Source: Candidatus Brocadiaceae bacterium (GTDB lineage Bacteria > Planctomycetota > Brocadiia > Brocadiales > Bathyanammoxibiaceae). From it: DNA of 36,280 bases. The notes below the pieces were generated by a model that saw only the letters and a list, made by a program, of their open reading frames with translations, was not told the origin of the DNA and did no database searches. Location of the stretch: contig JASEHG010000001.1 in the NCBI GenBank assembly GCA_030018855.1, positions 1 to 36,280 of the forward strand, read 5' to 3'. Every line of letters starts with the position of its first letter. The stretch's first letter is position 1. A program made the position numbers and the translations under genes. Of this stretch, positions 8,451 to 28,753 are shown in pieces.

Positions 8451-8461
8451 TATGGAAAATA

Positions 8462-11137: not shown

Positions 11138-11294
11138 GATTCAGAGGTCAGAATTCAGTAGTAGATAATGGACTATGGACTATAGACCAGGGACTACGGA
11201 CTAAAGAAAGTCTATAGTCCAAAGTCCAGAGTCTAAAGTCTTTCCGCCTCAGGCGGATTAGTATTCTGAATTCTGACTACTGACTTCTGTATTC
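11138..11294. repeat. Nested heptamer hairpins. Outer arms are GAATTCA/CAGTAGT-type, inner arms are GGACTAY-type, and the palindrome TTCCGCCTCAGGCGGA lies at about 11242-11257.
   Basis: ggactatagac pairs with gtctatagtcc, and gaattcagta with tctgaattctgactac. Read directly. Confidence 0.75.
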
Positions 11295-11335
11295 TTTCCC
11301 TACCCCCTGGTCTCTGACCTTGCCCCTACGGTTCG

Positions 11336-12754: not shown

Positions 12755-12827
12755 GCACTAAGCACGAAACACTGTCTTTGTTGCCTGATTCCTAGTGCGT
12801 AGTTAATAGTGCCTAGTGCATAGTGTT
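12752..12827. repeat. Heptamer-arm hairpin (GCACTAR units) between the two CNNM genes, followed by GTTGTTTT
   Basis: aggcacta (12753-12760) pairs with tagtgcct (12808-12815). The TAG stop of the upstream gene starts the arm. Confidence 0.7.
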
Positions 12828-13804: not shown

Positions 13805-13835
13805 CTAGTAGGGGCACGTTGCAATGTGCCCCTGC
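13805..13835. repeat. Palindromic element CTAGTAGGGGCACGTTGCAATGTGCCCCTGC
   Basis: It matches 29 of 31 nt of the element inside tsaD at 35741-35771. Confidence 0.9.
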
Positions 13836-13930: not shown

Positions 13931-13956
13931 GGACAGACCTGAAGGTCTGTCCCTAC
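13931..13956 (-). terminator. Hairpin GGACAGACC-TGAA-GGTCTGTCC(CTAC). On the minus strand it is followed by ATTATTATTT. Candidate terminator of the glycogen/cytochrome transcription unit.
   Basis: 9-bp perfect stem directly downstream of the last minus-strand gene, followed by a T-rich tract. Confidence 0.5.
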
Positions 13957-13960: not shown

Positions 13961-14497
13961 CTACTCCGTCTTCTTTTTCTTGAATTTATCGTGGCAGTCG
14001 TAGCAGGTACGGGAGACATCGTCGTAGCGGAGTTTTGCCATCTGGATGTCCTTCCTATCCCCTGCCTGGATTAGGAGCATGATGGCCTTACGGAATTGGT
14101 CACCTATGAGGATAAAGTCCGTGGGTACCCCTGCCGGATTCTTTTGGTAGTAGAGGTTCACACAGCGGCCTGCTATAAGGTCTTCTATCTTCCTGGAGGA
14201 GGTGTTGATGGCGTCCCAGTCCTTCTTCTCCACGGCCCTATCCAGCCTCCTCATGTTCAGAGAGGTGGCCGCCATGGCCTCCTGCAGGCCCTTTTCGGTC
14301 TCCAGGGGCATCTCCTCCTTCTCTGCCTCCCACTCCCTCTTGGCCCATTCTTCCAGGGGTGGTAATTCTTCCTTCAGGAATTGCTCCTCTTCCTCCTTCA
14401 TGGTTACCTCTGGTTTCTCCCGCTCACAGCCCACTAGCAGAACAGTAGACAGTAGGCAGTAGACAGTAGACAGTAGAAGGTAGCGTCTTGTTTTCAT
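13961..14497 (-). CDS. Lipoprotein, class II (four-helix-bundle, cytochrome c'/c556-like) c-type cytochrome, paralog 1
   Basis: Signal peptide with lipobox LVGC. A single CxxCH (CYDCH) sits about 10 aa from the C-terminus, the hallmark position for class II cytochromes c. It is a paralog of the upstream gene. Confidence 0.65.
   Translation of the reverse strand: MKTRRYLLLSTVYCLLSTVLLVGCEREKPEVTMKEEEEQFLKEELPPLEEWAKREWEAEKEEMPLETEKGLQEAMAATSLNMRRLDRAVEKKDWDAINTSSRKIEDLIAGRCVNLYYQKNPAGVPTDFILIGDQFRKAIMLLIQAGDRKDIQMAKLRYDDVSRTCYDCHDKFKKKKTE
14443..14477. repeat. Five tandem heptamers (CAGTAGA/CAGTAGG) inside the coding sequence, encoding the signal-peptide core [12 protein letters not shown]
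   Basis: Read directly. The 7-nt period produces a 7-aa peptide period. Confidence 0.9.
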
Positions 14498-14517
14498 ATT
14501 GGCCTCACCCTATTCGC

Positions 14518-14590
14518 AGTAAACAGTATGTAGTAGGTAGTAAGCAGTAGGCAGTTTCTGCTTACTCCCTACTCCTTACTGCCTACTATC
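14518..14590. repeat. Heptamer-arm hairpin (CAGTAGG/GTAAGCA units) between the two cytochrome genes, overlapping the upstream stop codon
   Basis: gtagtaagcagtaggcag - tttc - tgcttactccctactccttactgcctac. Confidence 0.8.
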
Positions 14591-15130
14591 TTTCTCCTTT
14601 CTGTATCTTTGATGGCATCTTTCGCACCCTTCCTGCATCAGTTGGAACTGGCTCCTGGCAAGAGGGGCGTCCTGTTGCCGTTCGGCGAGCAGTAACCTGA
14701 GTACGGCGTCGTTGAATCTCTGACTCATTTGCACAAAGTCCTGGGGCACCTCTCTGTGGGCCTTTACGTAGGAGTTTACGCACCTGCGGCCTATCAGGTC
14801 TTCAAGGCCCTTGGCCGAGTCTCTAGCGGTTGCCCAATTACCGCCCCCAAGGGCGGACTCCAGCCTCTTCATGTGCCTTGAGGCACTGGCCATGACGTCC
14901 TTTAGTTCCTCATAGTCCTCTGCCCCCTGTCGGGAATAGCCCTGCCTCTGTTCCTCCTGGGGACTGGGGGGCCTCTCTCCTTCTTCCATGGTACTGAAGG
15001 CCTTTTTGACCTCTTCTTCGGGAGTGGCCCTGCCGCCTTCTGGTTGTGGCTCCTCCCACCCCCAGCAGGAGGGTAATCCCATGAGGCCCAGGAAGGCCAG
15101 TAATATTATATAGTTAGTCCTCGGCCGCAT
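14576..15130 (-). CDS. Secreted/lipoprotein class II-like c-type cytochrome, paralog 2
   Basis: The ATG at 15130 is preferred over the GTG at 15136. It has a signal peptide and a C-terminal CERCH. It shares the block EDLIxxRCVNxY...VPxDF...CxxCH with paralog 1. Its start overlaps the branching-enzyme stop by 17 nt. Confidence 0.6.
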   Translation of the reverse strand: MRPRTNYIILLAFLGLMGLPSCWGWEEPQPEGGRATPEEEVKKAFSTMEEGERPPSPQEEQRQGYSRQGAEDYEELKDVMASASRHMKRLESALGGGNWATARDSAKGLEDLIGRRCVNSYVKAHREVPQDFVQMSQRFNDAVLRLLLAERQQDAPLARSQFQLMQEGCERCHQRYRKEKDSRQ

Positions 15131-16733
15131 AAACACGGAAATCTATCTCCTGGAAGACGTTGTCCCTGGACTCTATCTCCTCCAACCAGGGGTAATCTAT
15201 GCTGCCAGGGGTGGCCCCGCCACTCTTTATCTGCTGGTAGAGGTAGTTGAATCTGCTGATATGGTCCCTGGTACGTTTTTCTGCGTAAGGGGCCATGGTC
15301 CCTGTGGTCATGATAAAGGCCCAATCGCTGGATTGGGCCAGGAGGAGTTCCCTGGCCGCCTGGTTGAGCATCCTTTCCGTGAGGCCCTCTGCTTCTGAGA
15401 ACTCTCTGGCGAGTTCCAGCATCCTCTCTTCTGCCTTGTGGAGGTGACGGTATATCCAGTCGTTAGAGGCATTGAGCCATACCTCGCTGTAACCCTTGTC
15501 GCCCCAGGTAGAGGCGGAGGGTGTAGAGAGCTGCAGGACGGGGTTTTCCTCCAGGTATTGATTAAGGGTAACGGTGCATATGTCCCTCTGGTCAAAGGCT
15601 ATCTTGCGGAAGAGGAAGTCAAGGAACTCGGGTCCTTCAAACCACCAGTGGCCAAAGAGTTCGGCATCGTACGGGGCCAGGATGACGGGGGGTCTGCCCA
15701 GGTGGTCTCTGAGGGATCTGGCCTGGTGCTGGCGGTTAAACATGAAATTGCCGGCGTGTTCTGCGGCCTTCTCCCTCGCCCTGTATGGGTCGTAGGGCTG
15801 TTTTTCGCCCATGGAGACCGGGCCGGTAATCTTGTGATACTTAATGCCCAGGTTCCGTTTTATACCATCAGGGTGGAGGTAGGGTCGTATGTATTCATAG
15901 TCTGCGTCGTAGCCAAGGTCACGGTAGAACTCCCTGTAATTCCAGTCCCCGGGGTATCCCTCCTTGGCACTCCAGACCTGTTTAGAGGATTCTATGTCCC
16001 TCCCGAAGGCGGCAACGCCGCTGGGGGTTACGATTGGGGCAAAGACGCCGTAAACGGGTCGTGGGGAGGCATGGAGGATGCCGTGGGTGTCCTGTATAAA
16101 ATACTGGATTCCTGCCCGGCACAGTAGGACTTCCGTGCCTGGTGTATAGGCGCACTCCGGGAGCCAGATGCCTCTGGGGGGCCTGCCAAAGTGTTTCTCG
16201 TAGTTCTGGCATCCCACCCTGATTTGGGCCTCCCTGGACTGGTCGGTGGACATCAAGGGGAGAAAGCCGTGGGTGGCGGCACAGGTCATGATTTCCACCC
16301 CCCCAGCATCTTGAAGCCAGCGGAAGGCGTTTATAAGATTCTTCTTGTAAACGTCTTCAAAGAGGTGCCTGGTCTGTCTGAACCTCTCCTGGTAAAGCAG
16401 TGCCGTCTCATAGAAGGGGGTGTTTCTGGTACGGTGCACCTCCCTTTCCATAAGCTCTATACGTTTGTGGACATAGCGTAGACAGCGGTCTTGAAGGAGG
16501 CTGTCGGCCAGCATCTCGCAAAGGGGCGGGCTGAGGGCTATGGTAATCCCGAAGTTTATGCCTCTTTCTGGCCTGCCTGCCTCAAGGAGACCACTGAATA
16601 CCCTGATAAGGGGGATATATGTCTCTACAACGGCCTCGTAGAACCAGTCCTCCTCCAGGAATTCTTCGTGCTCTGGATGACGCACGAAAGGGAGGTGGGC
16701 GTTGAGGACTAAGGCCAGATATCCTGAAACCAT
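15114..16733 (-). CDS. GH57-family 1,4-alpha-glucan branching enzyme (GH57 catalytic domain plus a DUF1957-type C-terminal domain)
   Basis: N-terminus LALVLNAHLPFVRHPE, nucleophile region GIWLPECAY, and acid/base region APYDAELFGHWWFEG. The ATG at 16733 is preferred over the TTG at 16742. Confidence 0.8.
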   Translation of the reverse strand: MVSGYLALVLNAHLPFVRHPEHEEFLEEDWFYEAVVETYIPLIRVFSGLLEAGRPERGINFGITIALSPPLCEMLADSLLQDRCLRYVHKRIELMEREVHRTRNTPFYETALLYQERFRQTRHLFEDVYKKNLINAFRWLQDAGGVEIMTCAATHGFLPLMSTDQSREAQIRVGCQNYEKHFGRPPRGIWLPECAYTPGTEVLLCRAGIQYFIQDTHGILHASPRPVYGVFAPIVTPSGVAAFGRDIESSKQVWSAKEGYPGDWNYREFYRDLGYDADYEYIRPYLHPDGIKRNLGIKYHKITGPVSMGEKQPYDPYRAREKAAEHAGNFMFNRQHQARSLRDHLGRPPVILAPYDAELFGHWWFEGPEFLDFLFRKIAFDQRDICTVTLNQYLEENPVLQLSTPSASTWGDKGYSEVWLNASNDWIYRHLHKAEERMLELAREFSEAEGLTERMLNQAARELLLAQSSDWAFIMTTGTMAPYAEKRTRDHISRFNYLYQQIKSGGATPGSIDYPWLEEIESRDNVFQEIDFRVYAAED

Positions 16734-16734
16734 A

Positions 16735-16785
16735 GGGTTCAAAGGTTTAAAAGTTCAAGGGTTCAAAGTCTCAGGGGTTCAAAGG
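16735..16785. repeat. Tandem 8-9-nt repeats (GGTTCAAAG / GTTTAAAAG type) between the DUF4912 gene and the GH57 branching-enzyme gene
   Basis: Read directly. A complementary version lies at 23829-23862. Confidence 0.75.
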
Positions 16786-16789
16786 CCCC

Positions 16790-17413
16790 TCAGGGCTTAA
16801 AGATATACTCTTTTTTAAGCACCTCAGGGCTGGCCCCATGCCAGTAAGATACGGAGCTGGCAGGCTGGGGTACTATTTCTGGTGTCAGCCCTGGTATGGG
16901 TTCGCCTGAGGTGGGTAATTGTTTGGGCCTGGAAGGGGCCTTGCGGCGTCTTTTCAGGAGTTTTCCCCTGGAGAAATCCTTAAAGAAATGGGCCCATGTC
17001 TGGCTGAGGTCTTCTGCAGGACGGCCCCTCGGCGTCTCTACCTCTCCTGAGTAGACCACAGGGACGAAGGTGCCGTTGGACGCAAAATAACCCAGTTCAA
17101 AGCGGTATCTCCTGGCCGGGGACACCTGGAGATACCAGTTCCTGGCCCAGGCCCGTACTGAGACAGAGGTGGTAGTCCCGTCAGAGAGGCAAAATGCCTT
17201 GAGGGACCAATCCTCCATCTGCCCCGACAATGATCGTGCCTGATGGCCAAGGGGTCCTTCCAATTCCCAGTAGAGGAAGATATAGAAGGGGTCTCTGACC
17301 ATGGCCACCAGCTTGTCGTCTCCATAGTGTTCGGGCAGCTGTGGTCCACGGTCTATGTAGGGCTGTGGTGGGGTAGTCTCAAAGGTGCTGGGGGACTTTT
17401 CCTGAGTTTCCAT
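16790..17413 (-). CDS. DUF4912-type protein (function unknown), recalled as typically adjacent to GH57 branching enzymes
   Basis: The block YGDDKLVAMVRDPFYIFLYWEL matches my recollection of the DUF4912 signature. This needs HMM confirmation. Confidence 0.55.
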   Translation of the reverse strand: METQEKSPSTFETTPPQPYIDRGPQLPEHYGDDKLVAMVRDPFYIFLYWELEGPLGHQARSLSGQMEDWSLKAFCLSDGTTTSVSVRAWARNWYLQVSPARRYRFELGYFASNGTFVPVVYSGEVETPRGRPAEDLSQTWAHFFKDFSRGKLLKRRRKAPSRPKQLPTSGEPIPGLTPEIVPQPASSVSYWHGASPEVLKKEYIFKP

Positions 17414-17422
17414 TGTCTCTTC

Positions 17423-18658
17423 CTAGATAAAGGGCATCTCCTTGGGCACGACCACTATGCCCTTATCGGTAACGGTAAAGTGTCTATGGTCTTCCTCAGG
17501 GTTGTGGCCGATGTGGGTGTTATCCGGGACTATGACGCCTTTGTCAATAATGGCCCTTTTTATACTGACGTTCTTGCCAATCCTGACCCCTTCCAACACT
17601 ACGGAGTCAATTATCTCCGAGCCAATCTCTATCCGCACGTCTGGAGAAAGGACAGAGTGTACTACCATTGCCCCACTAATTATACAACCCGGGGAGACGA
17701 GGCTATCAAGGGCCACCCCCCTCATTTCCCCATTAGACAGTACCGTCTTGACGGGGGGGAATTGTTCCTGGAAGGTACGAATGGGCCAGTCCTTATCATA
17801 AAGGTTAAAAAGGGGGTCAACCGCTAAGAGGTCCATGTTGGCCTCCCAGTAGGCCTCCAGCGTACCAATGTCCCTCCAGTATTTTATGGGTTTTTTGTTC
17901 TCATCCTCAAAGGGGTAGGCGAAGACCTTATCCCTCCCCACCATGGCAGGGATTACGTCCTTTCCAAAGTCGTGGGAGGTGGGTCTTTTGGCATCCTCTA
18001 CTACCCTCCTTACAAGAACCTCTGTATTGAATAGGTAGATGCCCATGGAGGCCAGTATCTTGTTGGGGTCTGAAGGCATTGGCCTGGGCGTCTTAGGTTT
18101 TTCCTGGAAGCCCAGGATACGGTATTGCTCATCCACCTGGAGGACGCCAAAGCGGTGAGCCTCCTCTAAAGGCGCCTCTACGGCGCCTACGGTGAGGTCT
18201 GCCTGTTTTTCCATGTGATAGTGTAACATCTTCCGGTAATCCATTTTGTAAATATGGTCCCCCCCGAGGATGAGTACCTTTTCTGGATGTTCCCTCTCCA
18301 GGGTGTATATGTTCTGGTAGATGGCATCGGCAGTGCCCCTGTACCACTGGTCTGATACCCTCATCTGTGGTGGTATTATCTCTACGTACTCGTCTAGCTG
18401 GCAATTGAAGAGGTTCCACCAGCCCATGCGGATATGGCGGTCCAGGGAGAGAGACTTGTACTGGGTGAGGATTACTACCTTATGGAGACCCGAGTTTAGA
18501 CAATTACTGAGGCTGAAATCAACAATCCTGTAGATACCCCCAAAGGGGACGGCCGGTTTGGCCCTATCTTTGGTGAGGGGATAGAGGCGTTGCCCCTCCC
18601 CTCCTGCCAGTATCATTACCAGTATCCGCTTTAATAGTTCGTTGTTAGTTGCAATCAT
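17423..18658 (-). CDS. glgC: Glucose-1-phosphate adenylyltransferase
   Basis: ILAGGEGQRLYPLTKDRAKPAVPFGG N-terminus, WYRGTADA, and a C-terminal left-handed beta-helix region. Confidence 0.93.
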   Translation of the reverse strand: MIATNNELLKRILVMILAGGEGQRLYPLTKDRAKPAVPFGGIYRIVDFSLSNCLNSGLHKVVILTQYKSLSLDRHIRMGWWNLFNCQLDEYVEIIPPQMRVSDQWYRGTADAIYQNIYTLEREHPEKVLILGGDHIYKMDYRKMLHYHMEKQADLTVGAVEAPLEEAHRFGVLQVDEQYRILGFQEKPKTPRPMPSDPNKILASMGIYLFNTEVLVRRVVEDAKRPTSHDFGKDVIPAMVGRDKVFAYPFEDENKKPIKYWRDIGTLEAYWEANMDLLAVDPLFNLYDKDWPIRTFQEQFPPVKTVLSNGEMRGVALDSLVSPGCIISGAMVVHSVLSPDVRIEIGSEIIDSVVLEGVRIGKNVSIKRAIIDKGVIVPDNTHIGHNPEEDHRHFTVTDKGIVVVPKEMPFI

Positions 18659-18675
18659 TTACGCCTTCTTGAAGA

Positions 18676-18766
18676 CACTGAGTACTAAGCACTATACACT
18701 ATGCACTATGCAGAAATTCCACCTTTTAGTCCCCAGTACATAGTGTCTAGTGCCTAGTGTTTACTG
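18676..18766. repeat. Heptamer-arm hairpin (GCACTAT/GCACTAG units) between the response regulator gene and glgC
   Basis: cactgagtactaagcactatacactatgcactatgcag ... cagtacatagtgtctagtgcctagtgtttactg. The regulator's stop lies in the arm. Confidence 0.75.
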
Positions 18767-19126
18767 TGCCTTTCTTCTCTCCAGGATTTCTTTTATCGCC
18801 TTCTTCAGTTCGGTCAGGTCTGCGGATTTTACTATGTAGGCATCGGCCGACCACGTCATAAAGTTGTCCTTGAAGCTGGAATAGGCGGTGTTGATAACTA
18901 TAGGAATCCTGTTGTTCTCTCCCAGGATCTTCCCCATGGCCTCTATGCCATCCATCCCAGGCATGTTTATGTCCAGTACCAGGAGGTCAGGGGGGTTGAG
19001 CTTTGCCATCGTTACCGCCTCCCTGCCGTCTCTGGCTACTGAGACACTGTAACCTTCCGCAGAGAGTTCATTTCTGTAAAGAAGGGCCTGGTTCTTTTCG
19101 TCTTCCACTACCAGTATGCTTGTCAT
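18761..19126 (-). CDS. Single-domain (receiver-only, CheY-like) response regulator
   Basis: ILVVEDE, the phospho-acceptor context LLVLDINMPGMDG, and no output domain. The start is set at the ATG at 19126, which has SD GAGAGGA. The longer ORF would run into the repeat. Confidence 0.85.
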   Translation of the reverse strand: MTSILVVEDEKNQALLYRNELSAEGYSVSVARDGREAVTMAKLNPPDLLVLDINMPGMDGIEAMGKILGENNRIPIVINTAYSSFKDNFMTWSADAYIVKSADLTELKKAIKEILERRKAQ

Positions 19127-19173
19127 GGTCTTGTCCTCTCTTTGACTTCTGTCGTAAACACAGCCTAACTCTT

Positions 19174-19233
19174 GTAGGGGCAATTCCCGCCTGAGGCGTC
19201 CTCCCGAGGCGGACTTTCAGGATTTTCAACATG
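19174..19233. repeat. Inverted-repeat copy A (60 nt) flanking the histidine kinase gene
   Basis: Its reverse complement is identical to 21631-21693 apart from one 3-nt indel. Confidence 0.95.
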
Positions 19234-19244
19234 AATTGCCCTAG

Positions 19245-21506
19245 CTACTCTGTGATGGGGAGGAGCACTGAGAAGGTACTGCCCCTTCCCTGGACGCTTG
19301 AGACCCTGAGCTTCCCATCATGGTCATCTACAATCTTATGGCTTACCACCAGTCCCACACCGGTCCCAGAGGTCTTGGTGGTGAAGAAGGGGGTGAATAT
19401 CTTTTCTATCACCTCCGGGGCCATACCCTGCCCCGTATCCGAGATATCCGTCCTTATGTACTGTTCTTCCCGAGTAGACTGGACGGTGAGGGTACCACCT
19501 TCTTCCATAGATTCTACCGCATTCTTTATAAGGTTTAGGAGTACCTGTTTTATCTGGGCAGGGTCCAGGAAGGTAGGAGGCAGGCCGGGGGAGAAGTTCT
19601 TTATCAGGTTTATCCCCCTCTCTCTCAGGTATCCCTCCGTTAGACAACAGGTATCTTCCAACAAGGTGTTTATGTCCACACGGACCTTTCTTGGCTCCTG
19701 GGGCTTGCTGAAGTCCTTTATGTTGCCCAATATCTTTTCCAGCCTGCTGACCTCTTCTACTATAATCCTGGCGGCTGTAGCCACGTCCTCCTCTTCTGGT
19801 TTGGTCTTTTCTATACTGCGTGCAAAACCCCCGATGGTCACCAGGGGGTTACGGATCTCGTGGGCAATATAGGTGGATATCTCGCCCATGGCCACGAGTC
19901 GCTCCGAGCGGCAGAGCCTCTCCTGAGTCTCCCTGAGTTGCTCTATCTTTTCTTCCAGGGATTTGTAAGTCTCGGCGTTTTCCATTGCAAGGGCCGCCTG
20001 CCCTGCAAAGATGTTTAGCAGTTGGACGTGGTCCTCAGTGATGGGTTCCCTGCTGTAGGGATTGTCCGCCACTATTACCCCTACGGCCCTCCCTTTTACT
20101 ACAAGGGGGATGCAGACGAATTCCTTAGAGCCAAGGAATTCCCGGAACTCCCTCGTTACCCTAGGGTCAGTAGCCGCCTCTTTTACTACCTGGGAACGCA
20201 TCTCCTTGACGCACCTCACCACTATCTCCTCCTCCTTGTTCAGGGGATAGACCAGTAAACGGGTCTTTACGTTGAGTGGTGAGTCCAGTGGCTCCCTCTC
20301 CATTACCTCCTTGAGGAGTTCTTCCAGGGTGGGGTATCTCTGAGAGACGTCTTGCCATACCCTGGCGGCCTCTTCTCCGCTGGAGGGGCCTACGGCGGCC
20401 TTGCCATAGACTGACCTCTTCTCCTCGTCCACCAGGAACAGGAATGCCCGGTTAAAGGCCAGGGCCTGTCCGGCCGTAACGCTGGTGAGGATGAGGTTGA
20501 GGAGTTTTTCTATGTTAAGCGTCTCGTGGAGGGCCTGCCCCAGTTCCCTGAGGAGGGAGAGTTGCCTGAGCCTCTTTTCCCTCTGTGTGATGTCTCGTGA
20601 GAGGACCAGCACGTGGCCCAACTCCCCCTGCTCGTCCCGGATGGGGATGGCAGTATTCTCAATGTATCGTCTCCTGCCTTCCTTGACCACCGTCTTTATC
20701 TCTCTATAACGGCCCGCGGCACTCTCAAAGGCCCTGGCTACCGGGCAGTAAGCCTCGGCGCATTGAAAGACGTCCTTGCATCTGGCCCCTTTGGGCAGTT
20801 CGGTCAAACCCCATACCTTCGGGAGGTTTGCATTGGCCCAGAGGATGTTCATGCCCCTGTCCATGAGGCAGAGGCCTATCCCGAGTACGTCTACAACGTA
20901 GTCAAGTTTCTCCTTCTCCCGACGTAACTGTTCTTCTGCAAGTCTGGCATTGTTATAAAGATTTTTGTATCTTTCTTCAGAGAGCGTGATCTTCTCAAAG
21001 AGGAGGGTATTCTCCGTTATCATGGCAAGTTGGGGGCATATCTCCTCTAACAGGGGAAATTGGGTCGTAGAGAAATGGTGTGGCTCCATGCTGCTGAAAT
21101 TAATGCTACCTATGACTCTCCCCCTTACCTTCAGGGGATATCCCAGGCGAGACCGTATCCCTGTCTTATAAAAGAGGCCGTTAGTACTGTGGCTACCACT
21201 TTTAGTGTCTTCTACTATGATAGGCTCTCCCGTAAGCAGGATTCGCTCCAGGAGACTCCCCTCCAAGGGGTAGGGCTTCCCCTCCTCAAGGACATTGATA
21301 GTGTTGGTTGCGGAGGCCACAAAGGTAACGGCATGGTTATCCCCCTCCGTGGGAACAGAGATGCTGACCCTGTCAAAGGCCATTACCTTTTTTAATTCAT
21401 TTACGACTGAGACGTAAATGTCTCTTAAATTAAGGCTGGAAGAGATTATTCTCTGTATGTTGGAGATTACTTCTTTTCGTGCGGGATATAATTCTACTAA
21501 TTTCAT
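19245..21506 (-). CDS. Cytoplasmic sensor histidine kinase, GAF - PAS (Cys-rich) - GAF - HisKA - HATPase_c
   Basis: H-box STYIAHEIRNPL, N box LLNLIKNA, G boxes DTGQGM and GTGVGL. No TM segments. Two GAF-like regions flank a PAS-like region. Confidence 0.88.
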   Translation of the reverse strand: MKLVELYPARKEVISNIQRIISSSLNLRDIYVSVVNELKKVMAFDRVSISVPTEGDNHAVTFVASATNTINVLEEGKPYPLEGSLLERILLTGEPIIVEDTKSGSHSTNGLFYKTGIRSRLGYPLKVRGRVIGSINFSSMEPHHFSTTQFPLLEEICPQLAMITENTLLFEKITLSEERYKNLYNNARLAEEQLRREKEKLDYVVDVLGIGLCLMDRGMNILWANANLPKVWGLTELPKGARCKDVFQCAEAYCPVARAFESAAGRYREIKTVVKEGRRRYIENTAIPIRDEQGELGHVLVLSRDITQREKRLRQLSLLRELGQALHETLNIEKLLNLILTSVTAGQALAFNRAFLFLVDEEKRSVYGKAAVGPSSGEEAARVWQDVSQRYPTLEELLKEVMEREPLDSPLNVKTRLLVYPLNKEEEIVVRCVKEMRSQVVKEAATDPRVTREFREFLGSKEFVCIPLVVKGRAVGVIVADNPYSREPITEDHVQLLNIFAGQAALAMENAETYKSLEEKIEQLRETQERLCRSERLVAMGEISTYIAHEIRNPLVTIGGFARSIEKTKPEEEDVATAARIIVEEVSRLEKILGNIKDFSKPQEPRKVRVDINTLLEDTCCLTEGYLRERGINLIKNFSPGLPPTFLDPAQIKQVLLNLIKNAVESMEEGGTLTVQSTREEQYIRTDISDTGQGMAPEVIEKIFTPFFTTKTSGTGVGLVVSHKIVDDHDGKLRVSSVQGRGSTFSVLLPITE

Positions 21507-21562
21507 GGCCAGACCCTTAACCTTACGCTTTTTTTGTAGGGCGGCATTGCCGCCTAAATCAA

Positions 21563-21591
21563 GTATATTTTACTTTGTCCGTTCCTTCAAG
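21563..21591 (-). promoter_or_regulatory. Candidate internal sigma70-type promoter for the kinase gene
   Basis: On the minus strand: TTGAAG, 17 nt, TATACT. It is followed by the hairpin GGCGGCAATGCCGCC and an AAGG-type SD. Confidence 0.4.
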
Positions 21592-21630
21592 CATTTACTT
21601 TTGTGTGTTCGTATAACTGTAGAGGCAATC

Positions 21631-21693
21631 CATGTTGAAAATCCTGTTGAAAGTCCGCCTCGGGAGGACGCCTCAGGCGGGAATTGCCCCTAC
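21631..21693. repeat. Inverted-repeat copy B (63 nt) flanking the histidine kinase gene; overlaps the stop codon of the upstream GH57 gene
   Basis: See copy A. Confidence 0.95.
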
Positions 21694-23816
21694 AGGGCTA
21701 GTTCCTCTACGTCCCCTTTTATACGTAACTCCCATCTATCCCCTGGCCGCATAGAGAGTTGCCACAGTGGGAGGACGGTAGAACCCTGGTACACCTTTTC
21801 AAAGCCCGATTCGCTCTGGGATACGGTCATGAGGGGCATCAGCCATAGTTCAGCCTCCTTGTCCCACCCGAGGGATACCCTCAGGCCTAGGTGCTCGTCC
21901 ACCAGAAAGACCTTTTTCTTTTGGGAAAAACTCTCAGAGATGGCGAGGTGCCCCACTCTGTCCTCGTCGTCCAGTAAGTAGTACCTCCCCTCTGCCTCCC
22001 CTGCCGACATGGAGAGGTTAAATTCTACACCGAAGTTACACACAATCTCCTTTTTAGAGATATTAGCCAGGCTGTAAGCAATGTTCAGGCTGGGAGTCAG
22101 GCCGTCTAAATCCACCTGCTTCCTTATCAATAACGAGTCCCTTTCCCCCTGGATGGTACAATGGCGATAGAGTTTTAAGCTGACCCCATCGGGTCTTTCC
22201 TCAAACCGGCACTGGTAGGGTGCAGTCAAGGAGTCCCCCAGTTGAGTGAGTTTCCCCTGGAGGCAGTCCTCCAGGGCGGCCTGGGGTGGCAAGAGGTGGT
22301 CTATCAGCCCCTCCTTAAGGTAGCCATCGTAGTGGAGCCTCTGCTTGAGTTCCTCTTCTACCTGGGGAATGATGTCATGGATGCTCTTAACGTCTCCTAC
22401 GTGCGTCTGAGGTCTTGCCTCAAGGATCTTTTTGTGATAGGCCTCCTCCCTTCTACTAAGGGTGTTGAGGAGGTTCAGTCCCCTGGGTTTATAGTCCAGC
22501 TCATAGAGGTGTCCCCCCCTATCGGGCTTGAAGTAGGCATTGAGGAGGGGGTTGGTGAGTTTGAACTCCTCATGGGTATCCAGGTCAAAGTCCCTGACCT
22601 CTACGTGGGCCCCCGTGCTGGAGCCGCACAGAGACTCCGCCAGGAGGAGGTGCTGGTACACGGCACTGCGGAGGTGAGGGAGATACAGTCCCCCAAAGAC
22701 ACCGTGCCAGTAGGAGTCGTTACACTGGGCCTGGTAGAGTTCCTTTTGGGCATCCCCCCTGCCCTCCTTTTCTAAAGAGGGGACAGGGGAGATTTCTGTC
22801 ACTTTCTGGCTCACCTCTAGCATCCTGGCATACATTTGATGGGCCTCCGGGTATTTGACCCTGAAGTTTCTCCACGTGCCCCCTTTGAGGAATTGCCTGG
22901 CCACGTGCCCCCAGGGCTGGTTGGCCATAGCCCTGGAGACCTCTTCATACTCCATGAGACCCCTGGATGGCAAGGCCCACTCCATCATCTCCCTGTAGGA
23001 GGCGTCGGGGAGATAGACCCTGCCCCTGTGGGGCAATCTCTCCACTGCCTCTCTGAATGTGGTAGTCCTTATCCAATCCTTATTCCTCCTGAGGGTCTCT
23101 AAGAACTGTTCCAGCCAGCCCTCTTCATATACGTGCTTATAGGTCTTTGGCCAGCTCCCAAACTTCTCCCCGTCATCCGCATATACCAGGAGGGCATTAT
23201 CTCTTTGCTGTGCAAACTGGCGGAGGTATTCTACGGTCTTTTCTGGATGCTCAAACGGGATGCAGTACCTGAGTCGCTCGCTTCCAGGAAAGATTTTTAG
23301 TATCTCACCTTCGTCCTCGGTGAGGAAGTAACCGTCCAGCTCTTTCTCCTCCAGTCCTGCGTGCCTGAAGTGGGAGTCGTCCACCACCGTGTACTCCACC
23401 CCTGCCTCCCTGAGGGAGCTTACCAGGGACTGTTCCCACACCCTCTCTGCCAGCCAGATTCCTTTGGCCTCGGCATCCAGGTGGGTGTTAAGCCACCGGG
23501 TATAAGAGCGTATCTGCCCCAGTCTGTCTCTCTTTGGGAGCATTACCAGGATAGGTTCGTAGAATCCGCCCCCTAGGAGTTCTACCTGTCCCTTCCGTAC
23601 CATGGAATGGATGTACTCAAAGACCCTGGGCTTGTGGGTTTTTATCCACTCAAGTAGTCCGCCCGAATAATGGAGTACCAGGCGTACGTCCGGGTACCTT
23701 TCCATGATTTTAAGGAAGGGTTCGTAGGCCCTGGAGCATACCTCCTCAAAGACCCAGTGGAAGTTGCCGACCGGTTGATGGTTATGCAGGGCAAGGATTA
23801 GGTTTACGCGGTTCAT
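21690..23816 (-). CDS. GH57-family glycoside hydrolase no.2 (4-alpha-glucanotransferase / alpha-amylase-like architecture with DUF1925/DUF1926-type C-terminal domains)
   Basis: N-terminus LILALHNHQPVGNF, nucleophile region GIWLAERVWE, and acid/base region YADDGEKFG. Confidence 0.8.
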   Translation of the reverse strand: MNRVNLILALHNHQPVGNFHWVFEEVCSRAYEPFLKIMERYPDVRLVLHYSGGLLEWIKTHKPRVFEYIHSMVRKGQVELLGGGFYEPILVMLPKRDRLGQIRSYTRWLNTHLDAEAKGIWLAERVWEQSLVSSLREAGVEYTVVDDSHFRHAGLEEKELDGYFLTEDEGEILKIFPGSERLRYCIPFEHPEKTVEYLRQFAQQRDNALLVYADDGEKFGSWPKTYKHVYEEGWLEQFLETLRRNKDWIRTTTFREAVERLPHRGRVYLPDASYREMMEWALPSRGLMEYEEVSRAMANQPWGHVARQFLKGGTWRNFRVKYPEAHQMYARMLEVSQKVTEISPVPSLEKEGRGDAQKELYQAQCNDSYWHGVFGGLYLPHLRSAVYQHLLLAESLCGSSTGAHVEVRDFDLDTHEEFKLTNPLLNAYFKPDRGGHLYELDYKPRGLNLLNTLSRREEAYHKKILEARPQTHVGDVKSIHDIIPQVEEELKQRLHYDGYLKEGLIDHLLPPQAALEDCLQGKLTQLGDSLTAPYQCRFEERPDGVSLKLYRHCTIQGERDSLLIRKQVDLDGLTPSLNIAYSLANISKKEIVCNFGVEFNLSMSAGEAEGRYYLLDDEDRVGHLAISESFSQKKKVFLVDEHLGLRVSLGWDKEAELWLMPLMTVSQSESGFEKVYQGSTVLPLWQLSMRPGDRWELRIKGDVEELAL

Positions 23817-23828
23817 CTGGTGGCCTTC

Positions 23829-23862
23829 CTTAAACTCTTAAACTTTTGAACCTTTAAACTCT
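23829..23862. repeat. TTAAACTC/TTGAACC repeat tract, complementary to the tract at 16735-16785
   Basis: The reverse complement ggttcaaaagtttaagagtttaag matches 21 of 24 nt of ggttcaaaggtttaaaagttcaag. Confidence 0.65.
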
Positions 23863-25299
23863 TTTTCTTTGGTAAAGCTCAACGTACTCTCTTGCACTCT
23901 TATCCCAGGACCAGTCCTGGAGCATACCCCGCCTCACGAGTTCGGTCCACTGGGTGGTGTTGCGGTAGGCCTCCAGTGCCCGCTTGATTGTACTAATCAT
24001 TTCCGAGGTATTACTGGAGTCAAAGGTGAACCCTACTTGCTCGTCCACCGTATCCACCAGTCCCCCCGTTCGCCTTACGATGGGTACCGTACCATATTTG
24101 AGGCTGTAAAGCTGGTTGAGGCCGCAGGGCTCAAATTTAGAAGGCATGAGGAACATGTCTGAGCCGGCCTCTATCTCGTGGGAGAGGCGGTTATCAAAGC
24201 CAATGTTTATTGATGCCTTTCCTGGATACCTGGAGACCCTGGACTTCAGGGCCTCTTCGTAAGGCTGGTCTCCCTTCCCCAGGAGGACTAGCTCCAGGTC
24301 TAGTCCCATTAGCTCCTCCCACCCTTCCAGGAGCAGGTCCACCCCTTTCTGTTCAGCCAACCTCCCTATCCATCCTATTACCGGTACGTCCTCCCTCTCT
24401 TTGAGTCCGCACTTCTTCTGGAGGTGTCTCTTGCAGGCCCTTTTCCCCTTCAGGTTTTTAGGGCTGTATCTGGAGGGGATGAGTTTGTCCTTGTCTGGAT
24501 TCCAGGTGTTGTAGTCCACGCCGTTTACTATCCCGAAGAGGTCTTTGGAACGCTCCTGGAGGACGCCATCCAGGCCGCGGCCGAACTCCTGGCTCTGTAT
24601 CTCCTGGGCGTAGCGTCTGCTTACGGTAGTAATAAGGTCAGAGAAGACCAGTCCTGCCTTGAGGACGTTTAGCTTCCCATGGTACTCCAACTGCTTCCAG
24701 TTAAAGTAACTCCAGTCCAGTCCTGTCAGGGGCATATCCTCTTTAGGGAATAGACCCTGGTAGGCTAGGTTGTGGACGGTGAAGACCGTAAGGGTATTGC
24801 GGAAGGAGGCGTCTCCCTGGTAGATGGTCTTCAAATAGGCCGGGGCCAGGGCGGACTGCCAGTCATTGGCGTGGAGGACGTCGGGGGTCAGGCCCAGGGC
24901 CTTAATGGTCTCCAGTACCGCCTTGGAGAAGAATGCAAACCTCTCGCAGTTATCCTTGTAGTCAAGCCCCGTGGCGGGGTCTTTGTAAGGCTCAGCCCTT
25001 TCAAAGTACTCTGCGTTTTCAATAAAGTACACTGGTATACGCGTGTCGGGCATATAGGAGGAATAGACAAGCCCGATAGAGGTCTTGTTGGGCATGGGTA
25101 CGGCGATGGTAATCTTGGTAGGAGACAGGGAGAATTCCTTGCGGTTGACCTGTTTGTAGAGGGGCATAAAGAGGCAGACCTTGTGGCCCAGTTTTGCTAC
25201 ACTCTTGGGTAGTGCGCCCAGGACGTCTCCCAACCCGCCGGTCCTTGCAAATGGGTCTATCTCTGGGGATATATAGACGATATTGAGCTTCTGACTCAT
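23854..25299 (-). CDS. glgA: Glycogen synthase (ADP-glucose-type, GT5)
   Basis: N-terminus SPEIDPFARTGGLGDV, and the C-terminal block PSKFEPCGLNQLYSLKYGTVPIVRRTGGLVDTV. Confidence 0.95.
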   Translation of the reverse strand: MSQKLNIVYISPEIDPFARTGGLGDVLGALPKSVAKLGHKVCLFMPLYKQVNRKEFSLSPTKITIAVPMPNKTSIGLVYSSYMPDTRIPVYFIENAEYFERAEPYKDPATGLDYKDNCERFAFFSKAVLETIKALGLTPDVLHANDWQSALAPAYLKTIYQGDASFRNTLTVFTVHNLAYQGLFPKEDMPLTGLDWSYFNWKQLEYHGKLNVLKAGLVFSDLITTVSRRYAQEIQSQEFGRGLDGVLQERSKDLFGIVNGVDYNTWNPDKDKLIPSRYSPKNLKGKRACKRHLQKKCGLKEREDVPVIGWIGRLAEQKGVDLLLEGWEELMGLDLELVLLGKGDQPYEEALKSRVSRYPGKASINIGFDNRLSHEIEAGSDMFLMPSKFEPCGLNQLYSLKYGTVPIVRRTGGLVDTVDEQVGFTFDSSNTSEMISTIKRALEAYRNTTQWTELVRRGMLQDWSWDKSAREYVELYQRKRV

Positions 25300-25318
25300 A
25301 TTTTAAGTTCCTCCAAAA

Positions 25319-25383
25319 CCAGCAGTAGATAGTAAGCAGAAGGCACTGCTTTCTGCTTACTTCTTACTCCTTACTGCCTACTG
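25319..25383. repeat. Heptamer-arm hairpin (GTAAGCA/CAGTAGA units) between the GalT-like gene and glgA
   Basis: 10-bp perfect core: gtaagcagaa (25332-25341) pairs with ttctgcttac (25351-25360). Confidence 0.8.
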
Positions 25384-26388
25384 TTTTTTAGTTGGTTTTA
25401 CCTGTCTAAGATATTCTGCCGCATTCTCTGGGGGCACGGGGTTGATGTAGAATCCAGTACCCCACTCAAAACCTGCCACCCTGGTGAGTCTGGGGATTAT
25501 CTCTATGTGCCAGTGGTAATAATCCAGTTCCGGGTGGTCAAAGGGACTGGTGTGGATGATGAAGTTGTAGGGGGGTTGCTCAAGACTGCCTTCCAGCTTG
25601 GCCAGGGCAGTCCACAGGGTCTCTGCCAGTTCTTCTACCTCAAACTTCTGGATGTTCTCAAAATGGGAAGAATGGTTCTTGGGTAGTATCCACAGTTCAA
25701 AAGGGAACCTGGAGGCATAGGGGGTAAAGGTGCAGAAGTAGGTGCCGTCTAATACTATTCGGCTGGCCGTAGATATCTCCTGTCTCATCATGTCGCAGAA
25801 GAGGCATCTTCCCCTGTACTTGTAGAAGGCGAGACTGCCTTCCATTTCCGTGGCTACCACGAGGGGGACAATAGGGGTAACGATGAGCTGGGTATGGGTA
25901 TGCTCAAGGCTGGCCCCGGCCGTGGCCCCCACGTTCTTGAAGAGCATACCGTATATCATCCTCTTGTCCTTCTTCAGGTCAACCAACCTGTCCCTGTAGG
26001 TCCAGATTACCTCCTGGATGTAGCGAGGTTCCAGGTCTGTGAGGGAGATGACGTGCTGGGGGCATTCTATTATTACCTCGTGGGCGCCTATACCGTTCAT
26101 AAGGTCATAAATGCCGTCTCCGCGCTTGCTGAGTTCGCCTTCTATCTTGAGGGCGGGGAATTTGTTTGGCACCACCCTTACCCTCCATCCCCTGGAATTA
26201 GGGCTGCTTCCGCGCTCCCTGTAGGCCATAATCTCTGGCGGGGTCTTGTCCTCGTTCCCCGCGCAGAAGGGGCAGAAGTTACCCTTTATAGCGGAAGGGG
26301 CGGTGATAAAATCAGAGGGCCTGAGGGCCCTTTCTGTGGCAATGATTACCCATCTCCCAGATACGGGTTCTTTTCTTAGTTCAGGCAT
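25378..26388 (-). CDS. GalT-family (HIT superfamily branch III) hexose-1-phosphate nucleotidyltransferase/phosphorylase
   Basis: CPFCAGNE Zn motif and the HxHxQ active site (EHTHTQ). The start is set at the ATG at 26388, preceded by AAGGAG. The TTG-extended ORF runs into the repeat. Confidence 0.8.
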
Positions 26389-26402
26389 AGAGTCTCCTTT
26401 TT

Positions 26403-26467
26403 CAGTAGACGGCAAACAGTAGACAGCATACAGGGATAGTGATACCCCTGTCTACTGTCTACTGTCT
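26403..26467. repeat. Heptamer-arm hairpin (CAGTAGA units) between GH57 no.3 and the GalT-like gene
   Basis: acagtagacag (26416-26426) pairs with ctgtctactgt (26448-26458). Confidence 0.8.
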
Positions 26468-26474
26468 CCTTGCC

Positions 26475-28637
26475 TCACACCTGCCAGAATATCCTCTCAA
26501 AGTCCCTGGTAGGGGTGGTGAAGGCGAAGGGAAAGTGGTCTGGCAGTCTCTCCGTTACCTGTCCCTCCCGCTCTATCTCTACCAGAAATTCGGCATTTTC
26601 TCCAGGGGAAAGGCCAAGCTCCTGGAAGGGGCATCTGAGTTCCAGCACCTCTACGGCCGCTACTGCCTCCGGTACTATCCTAGGGGTGGTTTCACCTTTC
26701 TTGATGACTTCCAGGCCCTTTATGGGCTGTGGTGCTCCGGTCACCTGGAGCCTGACCTCTGCGGGGAGGAGGAAGATTACGGCCAGGCGGTCGCGTGTTG
26801 AGAAACGACTCAGGGCCCCTTCTTCAAAGTCTAGCCGTAGGAAGAAGTTCTCTTCATCAAAGCCAAAATACACCCCTCTAATAATCCCCCCGGAGGCCCT
26901 GTGCATTACCGGGGTATCTCTGGAGGCCCTGTAATAACCCGCCGCCACCCACTCAAAGAAACTGCTCACGCGTCCATCCAGCCGCACCTTTAGGAAACCT
27001 TTGGGTGTGGTGTAGGGTCTCTTCTTGCCGAGTTGGATTATGGGGAGGTCAAGTGACCTGGGGCTTTCGGATGCGCTAAATTTATATACGTTCTTCAGGT
27101 GGGTGCGGAAGAGTCTGTCAAAGACTTCGTCGTAGGCCGAGGAGTGGTCGTCCCCGTACCACCAGTACCAGTCACTCCCCTCACTGATGTATATGCACTC
27201 CTGGGCCAGTTCCTTATGGTTCACGCCCAGGTCCGGCCGCTTCTTCAAGAAGTCCCTGGTCTCCGCCACGTACTCCCAGGCCCGGTTCTTTTCTGCGTGG
27301 CCTACCCACGTGGCCAGGTTATGGTTTATCCACGAACCGGCGTAAAGGTCTCGCAAGGTATCCTGGGGGGGATGCCTCTCCAGGTAGTCGCTCACCCTCG
27401 TCGTCTCAATCCCTCTTTGTCGGGAAATCCCCCTGTAGAGTTCTCTCAGAAAGTCTAGCCCATTATGAGGATAGAACTCCCATGCGTTCTCTCCATCCAG
27501 GATTACGCTTACAAGGAGGGGCCGCTCGCCCCTGCCCGGCGCAATCCTCCCTAGAAAGTCTTCTACTGCGGCATGAGGGCTGTACCTCTGGTACTCAAAA
27601 CCGATGAGGTCAGAGAGGCGGTGGTCACGGAAGATTATCTGGGTCTGAGCCCCCTCGTATTCCAGGCGGTAGGGTTTATACAGGGTCTGGGGTTGATTCA
27701 CCCGCCCCTGGTGGTCACGGCCAAAGGTGGTATGTAGCGTCCTGGCCAGGATGTCTTCATCCGAGGCCATCCACTTGAGGCCGGCCCCGTTCAGGATGGG
27801 TACGAGATGCGGACTGACGGCCCCCTCCGAGGGCCAGAGGCCCTTTGGTCTACGGCCGAAGAACCTCTCATGGGTCTCCACCGCCTTCTGCACCTGGGCG
27901 ACCGCATCCTCTCCGGCCTCCAGCCTCCTCCGGGGCAGGGGGAGTTGCGGCAGGGCCTGCTGGGCCGTCCTGGGTTCGCAGAGGAGGGGGAGGATGGCAT
28001 GGTAGAAGGGGCTGGTGGTGGTCTCTGTCTGCCCGGAGGCCTCCAGTCCTCTGTGCAACTTTATTATCCTGTCTATGACCTCAGTCTGTTTAGCCAGTAC
28101 CATCCGCTTTTCTTCCTGTGAGAAGCCATGGCCCTTTTGGAAGAGGGACTGGAGGTCTCTATCTCCCTCTACCACCAGGGGGTGGAACCAGGTGAGGTTG
28201 GCCCATACCTGGAGGTCTCTGAGGTCTCTGTGGCTAAAGTCTCTTATTGCACTATCTGCGGTCTTTTTCCCGAAGGCCCGTTTCCTGAGGAGTTCCCTGT
28301 AGCGGGGATACGGCTCTATCATCCGTTCCCAGTTGGCAGAGAAGAAGTTGTCTATAAGGAAGAGGGCGTCCTTTTCCAGCAGTTCACTGGGTTCCAATTC
28401 ACTGAGTTTCTGGAACTTGTCCCTGGCCTTCCCCTGGGCATACTCCTCCAGTTGGACGAGCAGGCACGGAACGAAATTGAAATTCTGCCGGATTTCTGGA
28501 AATTCCTTCAGTATAAGCCCCATGCCTATGTAGTCCTTAATGGCATGGAACCTCACCCAGGGCAGGAGGTACTCCCCCGTACTGAGGTCCTTATAAAAAG
28601 GCTGGTGAAAGTGCCAGAGAAAGGCGATGTATATCAT
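26475..28637 (-). CDS. GH57-family glycoside hydrolase no.3 (720 aa, specificity unknown)
   Basis: N-terminus FLWHFHQPFY, nucleophile region GLWPSEGAVS, and acid/base region ILDGENAWEF. Confidence 0.8.
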   Translation of the reverse strand: MIYIAFLWHFHQPFYKDLSTGEYLLPWVRFHAIKDYIGMGLILKEFPEIRQNFNFVPCLLVQLEEYAQGKARDKFQKLSELEPSELLEKDALFLIDNFFSANWERMIEPYPRYRELLRKRAFGKKTADSAIRDFSHRDLRDLQVWANLTWFHPLVVEGDRDLQSLFQKGHGFSQEEKRMVLAKQTEVIDRIIKLHRGLEASGQTETTTSPFYHAILPLLCEPRTAQQALPQLPLPRRRLEAGEDAVAQVQKAVETHERFFGRRPKGLWPSEGAVSPHLVPILNGAGLKWMASDEDILARTLHTTFGRDHQGRVNQPQTLYKPYRLEYEGAQTQIIFRDHRLSDLIGFEYQRYSPHAAVEDFLGRIAPGRGERPLLVSVILDGENAWEFYPHNGLDFLRELYRGISRQRGIETTRVSDYLERHPPQDTLRDLYAGSWINHNLATWVGHAEKNRAWEYVAETRDFLKKRPDLGVNHKELAQECIYISEGSDWYWWYGDDHSSAYDEVFDRLFRTHLKNVYKFSASESPRSLDLPIIQLGKKRPYTTPKGFLKVRLDGRVSSFFEWVAAGYYRASRDTPVMHRASGGIIRGVYFGFDEENFFLRLDFEEGALSRFSTRDRLAVIFLLPAEVRLQVTGAPQPIKGLEVIKKGETTPRIVPEAVAAVEVLELRCPFQELGLSPGENAEFLVEIEREGQVTERLPDHFPFAFTTPTRDFERIFWQV

Positions 28638-28660
28638 AATTACGTAGCCAGTCCAGTAGC

Positions 28661-28684
28661 GTAGTCGCAGGCTTTAGCCTGCGG
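28661..28684. repeat. Palindrome GTAGTCGCAGGCTTTAGCCTGCGG (CGCAGGC family copy 2)
   Basis: It matches 3147-3170 and 32619-32642. Confidence 0.9.
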
Positions 28685-28685
28685 A

Positions 28686-28753
28686 CAGTAGTCAGTAAAC
28701 AGCGGGCAGTATAACAGTTTTTCCTACCTACTGTCTACTGTACGTTGTCTACT
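28686..28753. repeat. Heptamer-arm hairpin (CAGTAGT/CAGTAAA units)
   Basis: cagtagtcagtaaacagcgggcagtataacag - ttttt - cctacctactgtctactgtacgttgtctact. Confidence 0.7.
28708..28737 (-). promoter_or_regulatory. Weak candidate promoter for the glycogen operon (TAGACA, 18 nt, TATACT on the minus strand), built from the repeat units themselves
   Basis: Hexamers read on the minus strand, about 70 nt upstream of the GH57 no.3 ATG. Confidence 0.25.

Follow-up and report, generated by a model that had tools for sequence, protein, structure and literature searches.

Which process does a two-component system serve when it is encoded in the middle of a glycogen operon, and on which protein would it act when its regulator consists of a receiver only? 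This question is raised by a stretch of 36,280 nucleotides (nt) from a Candidatus Brocadiaceae bacterium (contig JASEHG010000001.1, positions 1 to 36,280; hereafter the window), in which a sensor histidine kinase (HK) and a receiver-only response regulator (RR) are found among the genes of glycogen metabolism (glg genes). The closest proteins are named Ca. Tripitaka or Ca. Hypogeohydataceae, an anammox lineage from groundwater that belongs to the class Ca. Brocadiia. An earlier reading of the letters, the sequence-only reading, had described nine co-directional minus-strand genes at 15114-28637 with HK and RR embedded among them. All nine open reading frames (ORFs) are present at these positions with domains that match by Pfam/NCBIfam, and the pair does lie inside a co-directional glycogen cluster. 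The nine genes stand, yet the extent given to the unit probably does not; two cytochrome c'-like genes continue on the same strand and the first of them (14576-15136) overlaps the last glg gene, so the unit probably comprises 11 genes (28637 to 13961). From the first gene onwards they are:

26475..28637, minus strand: GH57-family glycoside hydrolase of 720 amino acids (aa), first gene of the cluster (Pfam Glyco_hydro_57, E 1.4e-60)
25378..26415, minus strand: GalT-like HIT-family nucleotidyltransferase, DUF4921-like (Pfam GalP_UDP_transf and DUF4921)
23854..25299, minus strand: GlgA, ADP-glucose-type glycogen synthase (TIGR02095, 570 bits against a cut-off of 328)
21690..23816, minus strand: GH57 alpha-amylase/4-alpha-glucanotransferase-type enzyme (Pfam GH57, AmyA-A_glucT_m and AmyA-gluTrfs_C)
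19245..21506, minus strand: HK, cytoplasmic sensor histidine kinase of 753 aa, GAF-PAS-GAF-HisKA-HATPase (Pfam)
18761..19126, minus strand: RR, receiver-only response regulator of 121 aa (Pfam Response_reg only)
17423..18658, minus strand: GlgC, glucose-1-phosphate adenylyltransferase (NF001947, 581 bits, cut-off 470; TIGR02091, 485 bits, cut-off 425)
16790..17413, minus strand: DUF4912 protein (Pfam, E 1.4e-18)
15114..16742, minus strand: GH57 glycogen branching enzyme (Pfam GH57 and BE_C)
13961..15136, minus strand: two paralogous cytochrome c'-like genes, 14576-15136 and 13961-14497 (Pfam Cytochrom_C_2)

Spacers between the glg-cluster genes range from a 23-nt overlap up to 183 nt. The content is that of a classical GlgC-GlgA glycogen operon: GlgC and GlgA score above their curated NCBIfam cut-offs, and the branching enzyme is recognised by Pfam, although it falls under the lineage-specific NCBIfam cut-offs. 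GlgC is canonical and matches the E. coli enzyme (5L6S, E 1e-122). The two-component pair is equally complete, with an H-box histidine and a HATPase_c domain in HK and the acidic pocket, phospho-acceptor aspartate and switch residues in RR.

Linkage of the pair to glycogen genes

The sequence-only reading had staked its functional interpretation on synteny of HK-RR with glg genes in relatives. Such synteny was found in every relative examined, close and distant, in at least 12 independently fetched contexts in which HK identity to the window protein falls from 95% to 34%. The arrangements, with HK identities, include:

L001-L004, HK 78-95%: same cluster as in the window
L007/8, HK 59%: GalT-GlgA-GH13BE-GH57-HK-RR-GlgC
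L009 (Brocadia), HK 52%: GH57-GalT-GlgA-HK-RR
L011 (3.1-Mb contig), HK 46%: GalT-HK-RR-GlgC beside GlgP, GH77, GH57 and GH13BE
L013, HK 42%: HK-RR-GlgC
L012, HK 41%: gene order as in the window
L015, HK 34%: HK-RR-GalT-GH57x3-GlgA

Moreover, four RR orthologues that were picked blind to their context (L016-L019) all lie in HK-RR-GlgC triads, and in L016 (Latescibacteria) and L018 GlgC is the sole glg gene near the pair, as it is in L071. A Nitrospirae triple-GAF kinase that has no adjacent RR (L014) was found to have no glg context.

The same linkage emerged from a survey that took no account of context, in which metagenome contigs were scanned with an RR alignment and the patterns W[SA]ADAY[VI][VI]K and Y[STA][SN][YF]KDNF. 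The survey set comprised the best 80 of 485 RR relatives (53-97% identity), chosen by RR similarity alone, and neighbours were scored by mapping the window proteins onto the survey loci. GlgC lies immediately downstream of RR on the same strand at 51 of the 69 scorable loci (74%), and a homologous HK immediately upstream at 53 of 73. Among the 38 well-flanked loci (at least 2 kb upstream and at least 1.3 kb downstream), 22 carry HK-RR-GlgC and 34 have at least one glg gene. Single-linkage dereplication at 80% RR identity left 39 lineages and the same picture, GlgC being the next gene in 27/35, a glg gene being present in 22/25 and HK in 19/25. The survey loci span 34-72% GC and at least three phyla, with Brocadiia, Latescibacteria and Ca. 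Handelsmanbacteria as the named lineages. RR and GlgC are separated by a median of 23 nt, and at 22 of 49 loci the two genes overlap or lie within 11 nt of each other; the HK-RR spacer has a median of 19 nt with many overlaps, an adjacency that is only suggestive of phosphotransfer between the two proteins. The linkage of HK-RR to GlgC and other glg genes is thus both deep and wide, and the association of the pair with glycogen metabolism is well supported.

Some further neighbours recur around these loci. The PII uridylyltransferase gene glnD follows directly after HK-RR-GlgC in L016 (4784-7420) and L018 (9153-11843), which hints at a context of carbon/nitrogen balance, and csrA is located about 6-7 kb away in L011 and L019.

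Kinase, receiver and candidate target

HK was described by the sequence-only reading as a soluble GAF-PAS-GAF kinase, and the Pfam domains agree: GAF (27-162), PAS (206-310), GAF (~316-510), HisKA (H549; E 2.3e-11) and HATPase_c (E 8.4e-26). It has no transmembrane segment; the maximum 19-aa hydropathy is 1.72 and the stretch concerned falls within a GAF strand. The phospho-acceptor H549 (codon 19860-19862) sits in a canonical H-box, IAH549EIRNPL, which is invariant across 10 HK homologues. The kinases range from 571 to 1182 aa with varying numbers of PAS, GAF and REC modules, and they have in common only a GAF-DHp-CA core plus one preceding PAS, which leaves the GAF domain directly before the DHp helix as the invariant sensor. 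An AlphaFold2 (AF2) model of the PAS-GAF portion (pLDDT 87) retrieved generic PAS-GAF/GAF matches only when searched with Foldseek (3OOV; Lcd1 5W10, 16% identity; phytochromes, root-mean-square deviation 13-14 A). A C-x5-C-x4-C triad in the PAS domain (C243/C249/C254, HK residues 243-254, about 20745-20780) is conserved in Brocadiia-type kinases and could be a metal or redox site; as a family-defining feature it was rejected, being absent from the most distant of the glg-linked kinases.

For RR, the start at TTG 19183 taken earlier has to be replaced. That mechanical ORF start falls within a repeat element, while ATG 19126 is preceded by a GAGAGGA motif and gives 121 aa as in all orthologues, which makes it the most likely start. 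Pfam finds the Response_reg domain alone, in agreement with the claim that RR lacks a DNA-binding output domain. The phospho-acceptor is D52 (codon 18971-18973) and the switch residues are D9, T80, Y97 and K100; across 81 sequences, E8/D9, D52, T80, Y97 and K100 either do not vary or are replaced conservatively. RR is conserved far better than HK (80% against 59% on the same contig), and its near-invariant stretch INTAYSSYKDNFMTWSADAYVVKSSDLTELK (block INTAYssYKDNFmtWsADAYvvKS) spans alpha4-beta5-alpha5, where receivers usually have their output face.

Among characterised systems, ThkA/TrrA of Thermotoga maritima (TM1359/TM1360; PDB 3A0R, 3A10, 3A0U) comes closest. TrrA (3A0R_B) is the best PDB match of RR, at E 9e-24 against 1e-17 for the next, with 41% identity by BLASTP and the motif TAYS..+..+.W.AD.Y.VKS in common. 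ThkA (3A0R_A) is the second PDB match of the HK core after ZraS (E 5e-36, 35% identity by BLASTP), and the family-specific GAF-like domain of HK also aligns with it (25%, E 1e-18). Both systems consist of a soluble PAS/GAF kinase of ~755 aa followed directly by a receiver-only RR of ~116-121 aa, whereas the order of sensors differs, being GAF-like, PAS and DHp in ThkA and PAS, GAF and DHp here. The present system is therefore related to ThkA/TrrA but differs from it in the order of its sensors and in having a specific genomic association of its own.

How such a pair would reach glycogen synthesis can be proposed as follows. The soluble PAS-GAF kinase would sense an intracellular metabolic or redox cue, autophosphorylate on H549 and pass the phosphoryl group to D52 of RR. 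Because RR has no output domain, the phosphorylated receiver would act by protein-protein contact, presumably through its near-invariant alpha4-beta5-alpha5 face with the T80/Y97/K100 switch. RR would target a protein of the glycogen pathway. The most probable one is GlgC, the ADP-glucose pyrophosphorylase of the committed step, whose gene comes directly after that of RR; by binding, RR would set post-translationally how fast ADP-glucose and glycogen are made. GlgC is preferred because it is the commonest immediate neighbour of RR and, in some lineages, the only glg neighbour. We give a dedicated cytoplasmic two-component switch of this kind, acting by protein contact on the glycogen pathway and most probably on GlgC, a probability of roughly 0.45. 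Phosphotransfer from HK to RR, GlgC as the target rather than GalT-like, GlgA or GH57, the direction of the effect and the nature of the signal are all steps that we infer. Direct binding of the receiver to the enzyme is plausible from the sequences, and it gains support because RR-GlgC adjacency is the most conserved feature, the spacers are short and RR is kept where HK is missing.

Several findings weigh against this proposal. Three loci (L068, beside a molybdopterin oxidoreductase, L085 and L087) have no glg neighbours, and the linkage covers only the subfamily of at least 53% identity (the best 80 of 485 relatives), not all TrrA-like receivers. In fact, ThkA-TrrA itself has no glg neighbours in Thermotoga, where ileS (IleRS), a PilT-like ATPase and prfA (RF-1) follow it. 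In Brocadia-type clusters (L009, L051, L056, L073) RR is the last gene and GlgC lies elsewhere; RR precedes a GalT-like gene in L015 and L090 and follows a GH57 gene in L052/L054/L082. Because of these arrangements the partner of RR need not be GlgC. A mirror-tree comparison of RR with GlgC, HK, GalT and GlgA gave a partial r(RR,GlgC|HK) of 0.14, and it is gene order only that points to GlgC as the candidate target.

Perhaps, then, RR acts on another protein of the cluster, the GalT-like protein, GlgA, a GH57 enzyme or the DUF4912 protein. Across the survey RR adjoins the GalT-like gene at 6/73 loci upstream and 2/69 downstream and comes after GH57-AmyA in 4 loci, and the Brocadia-type order GH57-GalT-GlgA-HK-RR lacks GlgC, all of which would suit such a partner. 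Yet GlgC adjoins RR far more often than any of these does and is the sole glg gene in L016, L018 and L071, and the partial correlation is 0.70 for GlgC against 0.05 for GalT (n=13, weak evidence); we therefore regard a different target within the cluster as unlikely.

A second group of loci bears on the role of RR irrespective of its partner. At 15 loci RR occurs with no adjacent HK, for instance in GalT-RR-GlgC-DUF4912-GH57BE and GlgA-GH57-RR, and still has D9, D52, T80/S, Y97/F and K100. This suggests that RR continues to receive phosphate in such clusters, from an unlinked kinase or from a small phosphodonor, and acts on a partner encoded in the glg cluster. The retention of intact switch residues where no HK is adjacent makes a mere phosphate-sink role hard to reconcile with the data, as a sink would not outlast its kinase. 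A sink or feedback modulator of HK, with the true output of the kinase located elsewhere, could nonetheless draw on the ThkA-TrrA crystal complex, in which Yamada et al. reportedly found in 2009 that the RR contacts the sensor PAS of the kinase; the 3A0R entry is confirmed as this complex. A related idea, that the pair is a passenger of the glg cluster controlling some other process such as redox or the cytochrome c' genes, fits the occurrence of cytochrome c'-like genes after the cluster in Hypogeohydataceae, but the linkage to glg genes is maintained without the cytochrome genes in several phyla and over 34-72% GC. Between them, these sink and passenger roles are quite improbable.

Transcription offers another route. 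The pair could control glg expression indirectly, with RR as a Spo0F-like phosphorelay intermediate or as a connector whose signal goes to an Hpt protein, a DNA-binding regulator or a sigma-factor partner encoded elsewhere. Relay intermediates of the single-domain RR type are known, Spo0F is among the PDB matches of RR, and a conserved promoter-like block upstream of HK (below) indicates that transcriptional organisation matters at this locus. However, in about 100 loci examined no Hpt gene or DNA-binding RR gene is conserved near the pair, and a local protein partner accounts better for both the tight RR-GlgC spacing and the retention of RR in glg clusters that lack HK. A relay of this kind appears to us to have a low probability, and direct contact of the phosphorylated receiver with a glycogen enzyme, GlgC foremost, is the account that we retain.

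The GlgC enzymes linked to RR show features of their own. They share LT[KR]DRAKPAVPFGG.YRI[IV]DF (residues 28-48 of the window GlgC, about 18515-18577), in which the E. coli activator residue Lys39 aligns with Asp in 49/53 linked GlgCs and His46 with Pro in 53/53. The signature is probably a subfamily trait and was not used as evidence; the two substitutions suggest that the effector specificity of the linked enzymes may differ from that of the enteric one.

Repeats, promoter-like sites and the surrounding window

Could the pair have arrived by accident? The sequence-only reading had observed inverted repeats, taken to flank HK-RR, which would fit a chance insertion. The elements concerned, with the other noncoding features of the unit, are:

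21624..21694, no strand: REP-like palindromic element, copy A, upstream of HK, inverted repeat with 19173-19240
19173..19240, no strand: REP-like palindromic element, copy B, in the HK-RR spacer in inverted orientation, repeat of copy A
28708..28737, minus strand: promoter-like site TAGACA-18-TATACT with TG, upstream of the first gene (consensus scan, 10/12 matches; consensus match only)
21562..21590, minus strand: promoter-like block TTGAAG-17-TATACT upstream of HK, CTTGAAGGAA-N-AAAGTAAAATATACTTG (consensus scan)
18659..18760, minus strand: hairpin formed by inverted 7-nt repeats in the RR-GlgC spacer (-38 kcal/mol, z -4.5; TRF)
13931..13952, minus strand: terminator-like hairpin after the last co-directional gene (9-bp stem with 6 GC pairs, then a T-rich tail)

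The two arms of ~70 nt match over 47 nt at 100% and 23 nt at 96%, a pattern that might be expected if HK-RR had recently been inserted by chance or formed a mobile or invertible cassette with inverted repeats at its ends. Each arm is itself palindromic, GTAGGGGCAATT...AATTGCC(C/T)CTAC, with an internal hairpin, and copy A folds at -35.9 kcal/mol (z -3.8). The arms bracket the HK gene alone and not the pair, and their content varies among strains: the HK-RR spacer of L001 and L002 holds only a 28-nt minimal hairpin, GTAGGGGCAATT.ATGAATTGCCCCTAC, the sequence at the site of copy A differs among relatives, with a different REP family upstream in L001, and the same spacers hold different elements in strains that are 95% identical. 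L004 (78%) has no such repeat, yet HK-RR is present there in the same orientation. As the genome is full of REP-like hairpins, with 7-nt tandem repeats in nearly every spacer, the repeat is better seen as local intergenic furniture than as a sign of insertion. In addition, the orientation of HK is identical in all 7 close relatives, the window shows no compositional anomaly and no recombinase or transposase, and the synteny is ancient and present in all relatives. A chance origin of HK-RR is thereby refuted, the mobile or invertible cassette is rejected, and the likelihood left for either is negligible.

The REP-like elements and short repeats extend well beyond HK. Two further palindrome families each have three gene-end copies in the window, GTAGGGGCACGTTGCAAyGTGCCCCT at 1675-1703, 13805-13833 and 35741-35769, and GTAGCCGCAGGCTTTAGCCTGCGG at 3142-3171, 28656-28685 and 32614-32643. 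Tandem 7-nt repeats (ACAGTAG, TTACTGT, ACTAGGC and similar) occupy most of the spacers, often as inverted arrays that fold into long hairpins; examples are 521-554, 2840-2877, 8461-8493, 11168-11295, 12793-12825, 14442-14587, 18684-18759, 25345-25383 and 26403-26467. Relatives carry different 7-nt sequences at the same junctions, and the whole looks like a genome-wide intergenic repeat system. The RR-GlgC spacer hairpin is not followed by a U-tract and is therefore not a canonical terminator, and the spacers gave no riboswitch or known RNA match in Rfam at E <= 0.1.

The promoter-like block at 21562-21590 has been kept amid diverging flanks in L001-L004, L020 and L022, and for this reason HK-RR-GlgC-DUF4912-GH57BE may form a sub-operon in this lineage. 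Downstream, the cytochrome c'-like genes, which may be co-transcribed with the glycogen genes, recur behind the glg cluster in L001, L021 and L022 (Hypogeohydataceae); one such gene comes after GlgC in L007. A DUF4912 gene stands between GlgC and the GH57 branching enzyme in the window and in L012, L022, L065, L078, L088, L089, L093 and L099, and a single-sequence AF2 model of its product (pLDDT 37) was too poor for use. The GalT-like protein scores 98.1 bits, just under the TIGR00209 GalT cut-off of 102.1, and its gene is kept in most related clusters, adjoining GlgA, HK or RR; the product may be an ADP-glucose phosphorylase-type enzyme and not a galactose enzyme.

Elsewhere in the window the genes are of the housekeeping kind: ffh, an EPSP-synthase-fold gene, prmC, prfA, ccsAB-type cytochrome assembly, CorC-type transporters, SurA-like, ribF, a split transketolase, ctpA-like and tsaD. 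Nowhere in it did we find a DNA-binding domain or regulator or an Hpt protein. Downstream of the glg cluster, at a distance of a few kb, come prfA (RF-1) and prmC (6082-8124, minus strand). An RF-1 gene is likewise found close to HK-RR-GlgC in L016 and L018, and to ThkA-TrrA in T. maritima (loci listed for this are L016, L018 and L100); the proximity of RF-1 to the pair may reflect an ancient positional association.

Precedents and meaning for glycogen control

Bacterial glycogen synthesis is taught as small-molecule allostery of GlgC together with global regulators (CsrA, ppGpp and PhoPQ), to which the cyanobacterial Rre37/RpaA may be added. That control shares its pathway, and GlgC as its control point, with the system considered here, but the known two-component inputs are global DNA-binding regulators encoded elsewhere, whereas the present pair is encoded within the operon and has no DNA-binding output. 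The sequence-only reading knew of no characterised dedicated two-component system inside a glg operon, and full-text searches of the open-access literature agree with it. Within that same body of text, no response regulator acting directly on GlgC was found described, and in the accessible portion of a 2024 Chem Rev review of alpha-glucan metabolism there is no mention of two-component systems, histidine kinases, response regulators or receivers.

Precedents for the proposed mode of action do exist. Single-domain RRs that act by protein binding include CheY (on FliM), DivK (on DivL/PleC) and CpdR (on ClpXP), and RR resembles this class as a receiver-only protein with the canonical Asp/Thr/Tyr/Lys switch and no DNA-binding domain; DivK and CheY are also among its PDB matches. 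The targets of that class are motors, kinases and proteases, and a biosynthetic enzyme for a storage polymer was not found among them in the open-access literature. On the side of glycogen, Seok et al. are said to have observed in 1997 that in E. coli the binding of HPr to glycogen phosphorylase depends on whether HPr is phosphorylated. As a precedent, it would show a small signalling protein of the phospho-carrier type binding a glycogen enzyme directly and so regulating it, although HPr belongs to the His-phosphorylated phosphotransferase system, its target is GlgP and there is no genetic linkage.

The system is a pair of the ThkA/TrrA kind that is specialised for glycogen metabolism and genetically locked to it; no prior description of such a system was found in open-access text. 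Whether its role extends to the family is more doubtful: it is possible, and we hold it only tentatively, that the TrrA-like receiver-only subfamily is a widespread and previously unrecognised dedicated glycogen regulator that would bind GlgC directly in a phosphorylation-dependent manner. To our knowledge, a physiological role for ThkA/TrrA has not been described, so that the glycogen link, if true, would by homology provide the first physiological lead for this structural model system.

Glycogen is a known storage compound of anammox bacteria and a currency of cross-feeding. Through a kinase/receiver pair that is encoded in the operon and stays next to glgC in different phyla, carbon storage would have a dedicated signalling input, and with its four soluble proteins the system lends itself to clean tests. 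Binding of the receiver to GlgC, if it occurs, would give single-domain response regulators a new class of target; for anammox bacteria and several candidate phyla it would also place His-Asp signalling, as a new post-translational layer, on the committed step of glycogen synthesis.

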